DNA of 860 nt from a phage. This document shows, piece by piece, positions 1-860 of this stretch; within the stretch, counting starts at the first letter, position 1; every line of letters starts with the position of its first letter. The stretch lies in the sequence record S81550.1. One strand, given 5' to 3'. Below the pieces are notes generated by a model that was not told the origin of the DNA, searched no databases, and was given only the letters and a program-made list of their open reading frames with translations. The position numbers and the translations under genes are program-made.

Positions 1-5
1 GGGTT

Positions 6-21
6 CCCCCCCGTAGGGGGG
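6..21 (+). promoter_or_regulatory. 5'-terminal stem-loop (C-run/G-run hairpin), presumed replication cis-element
   Basis: Seen directly: CCCCCCC (6-12) and GGGGGG (16-21) are perfectly complementary around a 3-4 nt loop (GUA), giving a very stable GC-only hairpin right after the terminal GGG. By established knowledge, Qbeta and MS2 carry an equivalent 5'-terminal hairpin whose complement forms the 3' end of the minus strand. Confidence 0.65.
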
Positions 22-46
22 TACTCTATGTAGTAGCAACCATTAC

Positions 47-52
47 TGGAGG
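47..52 (+). promoter_or_regulatory. Shine-Dalgarno sequence for the maturation protein gene
   Basis: TGGAGG at 47-52, with a 4-nt spacer (CAAC) before ATG 57-59. The spacing is slightly short but workable. Confidence 0.6.
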
Positions 53-56
53 CAAC

Positions 57-860
57 ATGCCACGTCTACCTAGGGGACTTCGATTCGGAGCGAACATGGA
101 GGTCTTAAATGACTTCCAGGAACTCTGGTATCCAGAGTCCCGCGTCGATTCCGATACGATTTTCCCTTTGTATACCTTCAAAGGTAACATGGGTGGCTCT
201 TTTTTCGACACTTACGGCACAAACAATATTGTCCGTCAGGTTCGAAGGACGCCACACCGTGCTACAGTTCCTATAGCCTCTTCTGGCTTAAGGCCCTGTA
301 CCTCTGTATGGTATGACCCATCCAGCTTGCTTTTCAGGATTCCTGAAATGAGAGCGGTTTGGGACAATGGCATGGGTGATACTGGAGATATTGTCTATAA
401 TGACTTTCTCTTCAATACGCCGGCACCTAAGGAGTTCGATTTCTCTAATTCCTTAGCGCCACGCTACAGTAATGCCTTCTCTGCTTTTAACGCTAAATAT
501 GGCGTTATCATTGGAGAAGGGCGCGAGACACTTAAGTATTTCGCGCTATTACTTCGCAGGCTACATAAAGCAGTCCGTGCCGTTCGGCACGGAGATTTAC
601 GAGGTCTCCGGAGGATCCTTGACTCTTACCATAAGGGTCATTGGAAGCCTGCTACTGCTGGTAATCTCTGGCTCGAATTTCGTTATGGCCTCGTCCCGCT
701 CTTCCATGACATCAAAGATGTCATGAACGACTGGACGCGCATTAACGATAAGATCCAGAAATATCGCCGATTCTCGGTGGGTCATGGTGAGGATTTTAAG
801 CTGTCTATCGACGGCTTATATCCTGGCCTTACTCATTTCCGATTATCTGGTGAGATTACC
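57..860 (+). CDS. A2: Maturation / lysis protein A2 (A-protein) of a Qbeta-like ssRNA phage; N-terminal 268 codons, 3'-truncated by the window edge
   Basis: My own translation from ATG 57 gives 268 sense codons with no stop through 860: MPRLPRGLRFGANMEVLNDFQELWYPESRVDSDTIFPLYTFKGNMGGSFFDTYGTNNIVRQVRRTPHRATVPIASSGLRPCTSVWYDPSSLLFRIPEMRAVWDNGMGDTGDIVYNDFLFNTPAPKEFDFSNSLAPRYSNAFSAFNAKYGVIIGEGRETLKYFALLLRRLHKAVRAVRHGDLRGLRRILDSYHKGHWKPATAGNLWLEFRYGLVPLFHDIKDVMNDWTRINDKIQKYRRFSVGHGEDFKLSIDGLYPGLTHFRLSGEIT. From memory, Qbeta A2 starts MPKLPRGLRFGA...NDFQELW and shares the blocks RQVRRTPHR, VPIASSGLRP, NDFLF, APKEFDFSNSL, AFSAFNAKYG, IGEG, LLLRRL, KPATAGNLWLEFRYGL, FSVGHGED and GEIT in the same order and spacing. 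Qbeta A2 is about 420 aa, so roughly 150 codons would lie beyond the window. Confidence 0.9.
   Translation, partial: MPRLPRGLRFGANMEVLNDFQELWYPESRVDSDTIFPLYTFKGNMGGSFFDTYGTNNIVRQVRRTPHRATVPIASSGLRPCTSVWYDPSSLLFRIPEMRAVWDNGMGDTGDIVYNDFLFNTPAPKEFDFSNSLAPRYSNAFSAFNAKYGVIIGEGRETLKYFALLLRRLHKAVRAVRHGDLRGLRRILDSYHKGHWKPATAGNLWLEFRYGLVPLFHDIKDVMNDWTRINDKIQKYRRFSVGHGEDFKLSIDGLYPGLTHFRLSGEIT

Follow-up and report, generated by a model that had tools for sequence, protein, structure and literature searches.

The 860-nt stretch of sequence analysed here (the window) is, with near certainty, nt 1–860 of the plus-strand RNA genome, written in cDNA letters, of the F-pilus-specific coliphage M11, a genogroup III phage belonging to Qubevirus durum in the Fiersviridae. 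A blastn search against 50,697 phage records aligned the window with nt 1–860 of AF052431.1 (Enterobacteria phage M11), plus strand, at 860 of 860 positions, and this was the sole record with 100% identity over 100% coverage. An exact string match likewise places the window as the opening 860 bases, or the first 20%, of this 4217-nt record. Nothing was found that contradicts the identification. The sequence is already known as part of the long-published M11 genome, and its biology is that of a textbook member of the Qbeta group. The proper label for the window is, accordingly, nt 1–860 of the phage M11 RNA genome, and not cellular DNA or an unknown element.

Identity and genome context of the window

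M11 is among the genomes sequenced in the 1990s to derive RNA structure models by comparison. Its record, AF052431.1, places it in Qubevirus durum (Fiersviridae, Qubevirus), and the phage is listed under the genogroup III F-specific RNA phages (PMC6963950). The original prediction, made from the letters of the window, had placed it at the 5′ terminus of a Qbeta-type single-stranded RNA phage, either a known isolate (M11, MX1, SP, FI or NL95) or an undescribed one. The full-length match beginning at nt 1 bears out the first of these statements; as for the second, the known isolate stands, in the form of M11, and the undescribed one is excluded.

In AF052431.1, the A-protein CDS occupies nt 57–1322 on the plus strand. 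It is followed, beyond the window, by the genes for the coat protein (1344–1745), the read-through A1 protein (1344–2333, by read-through of UGA) and the replicase beta subunit (2352–4118), and the record closes with ...CUCCUCCCA, a 3′ end of the CCCA type. For the source of the window, the coat, A1 and replicase genes and the CCCA end rest on its identity with AF052431.1. This is the downstream order that had been anticipated, and the roughly 150 A2 codons expected to follow the window number 153 in the M11 record. Findings named beforehand as speaking against the assignment, such as missing similarity to maturation proteins or an early stop in the A-protein frame, did not appear: the similarity is strong, and the A-protein frame of AF052431.1 stays open to nt 1322.

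The next-best nucleotide matches were the two MX1 records (AF059242.1 and NC_001890.1), at 87% identity, and then about thirty Qbeta-type isolates at about 73%, the blastn alignments of the latter being confined to that half of the window which is better conserved. Across whole genomes, the identity of M11 is 88.7% with MX1, 73.3% with Qbeta and 65.4% with FI. These distances bear on the possibility that the window comes from a different, undescribed Qbeta-like phage, or from another isolate of the M11 lineage, that happens to be identical to M11 across these 860 bases. The window samples 860 of 4217 nt, and M11-type reads have been reported from wastewater (PMC6963950), both of which leave some room for such an isolate. 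Against it, the identity is complete from the very first nucleotide of AF052431.1 onward, and RNA phages isolated independently usually differ at many sites. A distinct isolate is very unlikely because even MX1, the closest relative, differs at 13% of positions, and we retain the assignment to M11 itself.

We gave still less weight, to the point of treating it as negligible, to the idea that the window is a DNA copy, either a cDNA cloned in a plasmid or a phage-derived sequence in a bacterial chromosome. The sequence is indeed given in DNA letters, and database entries of RNA phages are themselves derived from cDNA. Searches of 72,556 plasmids and of 5,426 complete Escherichia coli genomes returned no match to the window, and on these empty searches a cellular origin or DNA copy was rejected, in keeping with the earlier statement that this is not cellular DNA. 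In addition, the 5′ edge of the window coincides with nt 1 of the genome, and neither promoter nor vector sequence precedes it. To our knowledge, the Fiersviridae have no DNA stage.

One of the two MX1 records calls for a remark on its labelling. NC_001890.1 is titled 'Enterobacteria phage Qbeta' and bears MX1p* locus tags. Compared on length and CDS coordinates alone, it is equal in both to AF059242.1 ('Bacteriophage MX1'), and its identity to genuine Qbeta isolates, AB971354.1 among them, is only about 73%. The same record also misnames the A2 protein, as 'head maturation protease'. Users who take NC_001890.1 as Qbeta would be misled.

The A-protein gene

The window carries codons 1–268 of the 421 codons of the A-protein (A2 maturation/lysis protein) gene, at nt 57..860 on the plus strand, as indicated by the CDS 57..1322 of AF052431.1, the Pfam family PF03863 and the structures PDB 5vlz and 5mnt. 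An A2-like maturation gene had been predicted to begin near nt 57 after a short leader; the leader measures 56 nt, the AUG lies exactly at nt 57 and the frame is open through all 268 codons, with 0 stops, the two remaining forward frames having 8 and 25. PF03863 (Phage_mat-A) was matched with 395.6 bits (E = 3.7e-118), the curated Pfam cut-off being 25 bits. All 268 residues are covered in the alignments with the Qbeta A2 chains 5vlz and 5mnt (E about 1e-113), and the MS2 maturation protein 5tc1 gave a weak match (E = 2e-4). The list of open reading frames that accompanied the sequence lacks this gene, the only real one, as had been pointed out, because the list skips ORFs running off the window end; an ORF track made in this way can hide the sole gene present.

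Over the window, the A-protein is 64% identical to Qbeta A2 (171/267 residues) and 89% identical to that of MX1. Identity to FI was 47.5% over a 257-residue local alignment and 40% by tblastn over the full 268 residues. The Qbeta comparison agrees with the earlier description of an identity that is high yet incomplete and distributed in blocks, as it ranges from 25% to 95% per 20-residue block.

The least conserved segment is residues 30–120, encoded by codons 30–120 at nt 144..416 on the plus strand and homologous to the MurA-contacting beta-region of Qbeta A2, where identity to Qbeta is 52% vs 67–74% in other segments. It is also the most variable segment between M11 and MX1, with 82% identity vs 91–98% elsewhere. 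In PMC12856241, which cites Cui et al. 2017, residues 30–120 of Qbeta A2 are described as making most of the MurA contacts, within a surface-exposed beta-region. Inhibition of MurA by A2 takes place via this beta-region, and residues 1–180 are enough for lysis (PMC12856241, PMC10610835). The literature searched contained no experiments on the M11 A-protein, MurA or the pilus; on homology, at 64–68% identity, we infer that the M11 A-protein acts on MurA, the F pilus and the genomic RNA.

A second gene overlapping the A-protein gene, for example one encoding a small hydrophobic lysis protein, was also weighed. The candidate is an 84-aa ORF at nt 472–726 on the plus strand, in frame +1 relative to the A-protein, which contains a hydrophobic LLLLVISG stretch, and embedded single-gene lysis ORFs are common in single-stranded RNA phages (PMC10610835). 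Its chance of being a gene is, in our estimate, vanishingly small. In six of six Qbeta-like relatives, the homologous frame contains two stops, and in MX1 it is shorter; the 472–726 ORF is not a conserved gene because of these stops in all the Qbeta-like relatives. The nucleotides that are conserved there are explained by the A-protein motif KPATAGNLWLEFRYGL together with a long-range helix, 31–38/653–660, treated below, and lysis in Qubevirus is carried out by A2 itself (PMC12856241). Neither the window nor the A2 gene of the relatives contained a conserved alternative-frame ORF, and a hidden lysis gene, at 472–726 or among the other alternative-frame ORFs, was rejected as not conserved and interrupted by stops in relatives.

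The 5′ terminus and the closure of the A-protein start site

The window opens with GGGUUCCCCCCCGUAGGGGGGUACUC. The GGG start noted in the original prediction is present at nt 1–3 on the plus strand, and, as nt 1 of AF052431.1, it is the 5′ terminus of the plus-strand genome, complementary to the ...CCC 3′ end of the minus strand. The same GGG start was seen in 10 of 12 Qubevirus records fetched, the other two, FrMerlot and FrBurgundy, lacking the first ~5 nt. The terminal GC hairpin that had also been noted is a G+C-rich hairpin at nt 1..26 (plus strand), in which an outer stem of 4 bp is separated by 1-nt bulges from a C/G stem of 6 bp with a CGUA loop. Folding of nt 1–26 gave ((((.((((((....)))))).)))) at -16.5 kcal/mol, accounting for 71% of the ensemble. 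Among 200 dinucleotide shuffles of nt 1–26, 10 reached an equally good fold (z = -2.0), since runs of C and G pair readily whatever their order; for nt 1–70, the deviation was not significant (z = -0.8). Energy alone is, therefore, weak evidence, and we relied on the conservation of the hairpin among relatives. The full hairpin was found in nine of the ten Qubevirus records with a complete 5′ end, its bearers including MX1, three of four Qbeta strains, two strains of FI and NL95, and in SP (X07489.1) only the outer stem is paired. In the hairpin alignment, 93% of cells are paired, and a single pair, 6/21, has changes on both sides, that is, a compensatory change.

Several records differ at this end. 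The SP record X07489.1 reads GGGGGUAGGGGGGAUAAAGGGGGCCUGCCC at nt 1–32, with no clean hairpin such as those in NL95 and FI (GGCCCCAUAAGGGGCC); this 5′ end looks like a G/C compression error in a 1988 sequence rather than biology. PP430144.1 (FrMerlot) and PP430142.1 (FrBurgundy), both deposited as 'complete genome', begin ~5 nt inside the hairpin and lack the GGGGA end. The C-run of the hairpin, at nt 6–12 of the window, has seven Cs in M11 vs six in MX1 (NC_001890.1 nt 6–11), and the extra C in M11 therefore enlarges the loop from 3 to 4 nt and moves all downstream coordinates by one.

The rest of the untranslated leader, nt 27..56 on the plus strand, includes a local hairpin at nt 31–48 that appears only in short folds of nascent length (nt 1–70 and 1–300); in longer folds, nt 31–38 pair instead with nt 653–660. 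A Shine–Dalgarno sequence, GGAGG, is read directly from the sequence at nt 48..52 (plus strand), 4 nt upstream of the AUG, and G49, A50, G51 and G52 are invariant across eight Qubevirus durum sequences. Its predicted surroundings change with the length of RNA folded. When nt 1–120 or 1–300 of M11 are folded, the start region lies only in weak local hairpins. When nt 1–500, 1–860 or 1–1343 are folded, nt 56–62 always pair with nt 368–374 and the Shine–Dalgarno region always pairs with nt 463–471.

Three plus-strand elements provide the partners. The first closure arm, UGGCAUG at nt 368..374 in the coding region, is complementary to CAUGCCA at nt 56–62 and comes from the folds. The core of this helix, 58–61/369–372, is paired also in a consensus fold of six Qubevirus durum genomes. 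Its four core pairs are kept in eight of eight sequences and its three outer pairs are found only in M11 and MX1, so that Qbeta-like strains have only the 4-bp core of the 7-bp start-codon helix. The second arm, at nt 458..471 in the coding region, is the partner of the Shine–Dalgarno region (nt 42–53) according to the folds and the alignment. The third element, at nt 653..660, is taken from the consensus fold and pairs with leader nt 31–38 in an outer long-range helix enclosing the 5′ domain. The six-genome consensus register comprises 49–53/458–462 and 42–48/464–470, plus the outer helix 31–38/653–660, and M11 folded alone gives 44–48/467–471 and 51–53/463–465. The register of the Shine–Dalgarno pairing is accordingly approximate, as the M11-alone fold places the partner at 463–471 and the consensus fold at 458–462. 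In M11, the consensus register contains an A-A mismatch at 50/461.

In an alignment of eight sequences, 87% of the cells of these helices overall hold standard pairs, as compared with 36–55% when the partners are slid by 1–3 columns. Both partners are changed in four pairs, of which three belong to the Shine–Dalgarno helix, in a sample that comprises two lineages only (M11 and MX1 vs the Qbeta-like strains) and with a structure derived from the same sequences. The Shine–Dalgarno helix (42–53/458–471) has 87.5% of its cells paired, and its double changes between M11/MX1 and the Qbeta-like strains are UG->GC at 43/469, GC->AU at 48/464 and CG->AU at 53/458. The outer helix 31–38/653–660 has 97% of cells paired with one-sided changes only (UG->CG), and it is therefore conserved, though not proven by covariation. 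An Rfam scan of the window at E values up to 1 matched no family, and thus the 5′ end of Qubevirus is not represented by a curated RNA family. Taken as a structural model, the folds and the alignment show a conserved long-range pairing, with nt 368–374 and nt 458–471, that is predicted to bury the A-protein start site.

Beekwilder et al., in 1996, reportedly presented a model of the Qbeta 5′ domain with long-range closure of the A2 ribosome-binding site. The closure modelled here for M11 is consistent in outline with the published Qbeta model (PMC2978339). It is conceivable, though on the whole improbable, that the M11 register differs from that of Qbeta, combining the pairing of the Shine–Dalgarno region with 463–471 and the perfect 7-bp CAUGCCA/UGGCAUG helix. 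Such a difference might mean that A-protein dosage, and with it the timing of lysis, is tuned by lineage, beside a diverged MurA- and pilus-facing surface (52% identity).

From what is known of Qbeta and MS2, the following sequence of events may be proposed. The GGG terminus and its hairpin would mirror the CCC(A) 3′ end of the minus strand, where, by analogy with Qbeta, the replicase would start plus-strand synthesis. The A-protein start (GGAGG at 48–52, AUG at 57) would be open only on nascent chains shorter than about 370–470 nt; past ~470 nt, it would be closed by pairing with 368–374 and 458–471, and the 31–38/653–660 helix would clamp the whole 5′ domain. As the start would be closed beyond short nascent chains, approximately one A-protein would be made per new genome. 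The protein would then occupy the capsid as a single copy, replacing one coat dimer (PMC10610835, PMC12856241, PMC4615214). Its N-terminal beta-region, facing outward, would bind the F pilus and block MurA, leading to cell lysis, and its alpha-helical part would bind the genomic RNA inside the capsid, as in Qbeta.

Comparison with known RNA phages

The M11 record AF052431.1 is identical throughout the window, and its A-protein CDS likewise starts at nt 57. The nearest relative, MX1 (AF059242.1), has an M11-like organization, with the 87% nucleotide and 89% A-protein identities over the window given above, and its 5′ hairpin and leader are nearly identical to those of M11. The MX1 hairpin has one C fewer in its C-run, and the MX1 gene therefore starts at nt 56. 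The two A-proteins differ by 29 amino acids in residues 1–268, and the differences are concentrated in residues 1–120.

Qbeta (AB971354.1; A2 structures 5VLZ, 5MNT and 5VM7) resembles M11 in its GGG start, its terminal hairpin, the position of A2 as first gene, the fold family of the protein, the long-range closure of the A2 start and the CCCA 3′ end. It differs in sequence, at 64% identity for A2 in the window and 73% at the nucleotide level genome-wide, and in its leader, which is 60 nt long vs 56 nt in M11. The MurA-contact region (residues 30–120) is 52% identical to that of M11, and three pairs of the Shine–Dalgarno helix are changed on both sides.

The MS2-type phages (Emesvirus) follow the principle proposed here for M11, in that the ribosome-binding site of the maturation gene is closed at equilibrium and translated only on nascent chains (PMC4615214), but the arrangement is different. 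MS2 has a leader of 129 nt, which forms a 5′ UTR cloverleaf and supplies the closing strand from upstream, whereas in M11 the leader is 56 nt long and the closing strands lie 310–415 nt downstream, inside the coding region. An MS2-type cloverleaf in M11 was rejected given the 56-nt leader, as against ~130 nt, the downstream position of the closing strands and the lack of an Rfam match. MS2 also differs in having a separate lysis gene and a maturation protein (5tc1) that is only weakly similar to that of M11.
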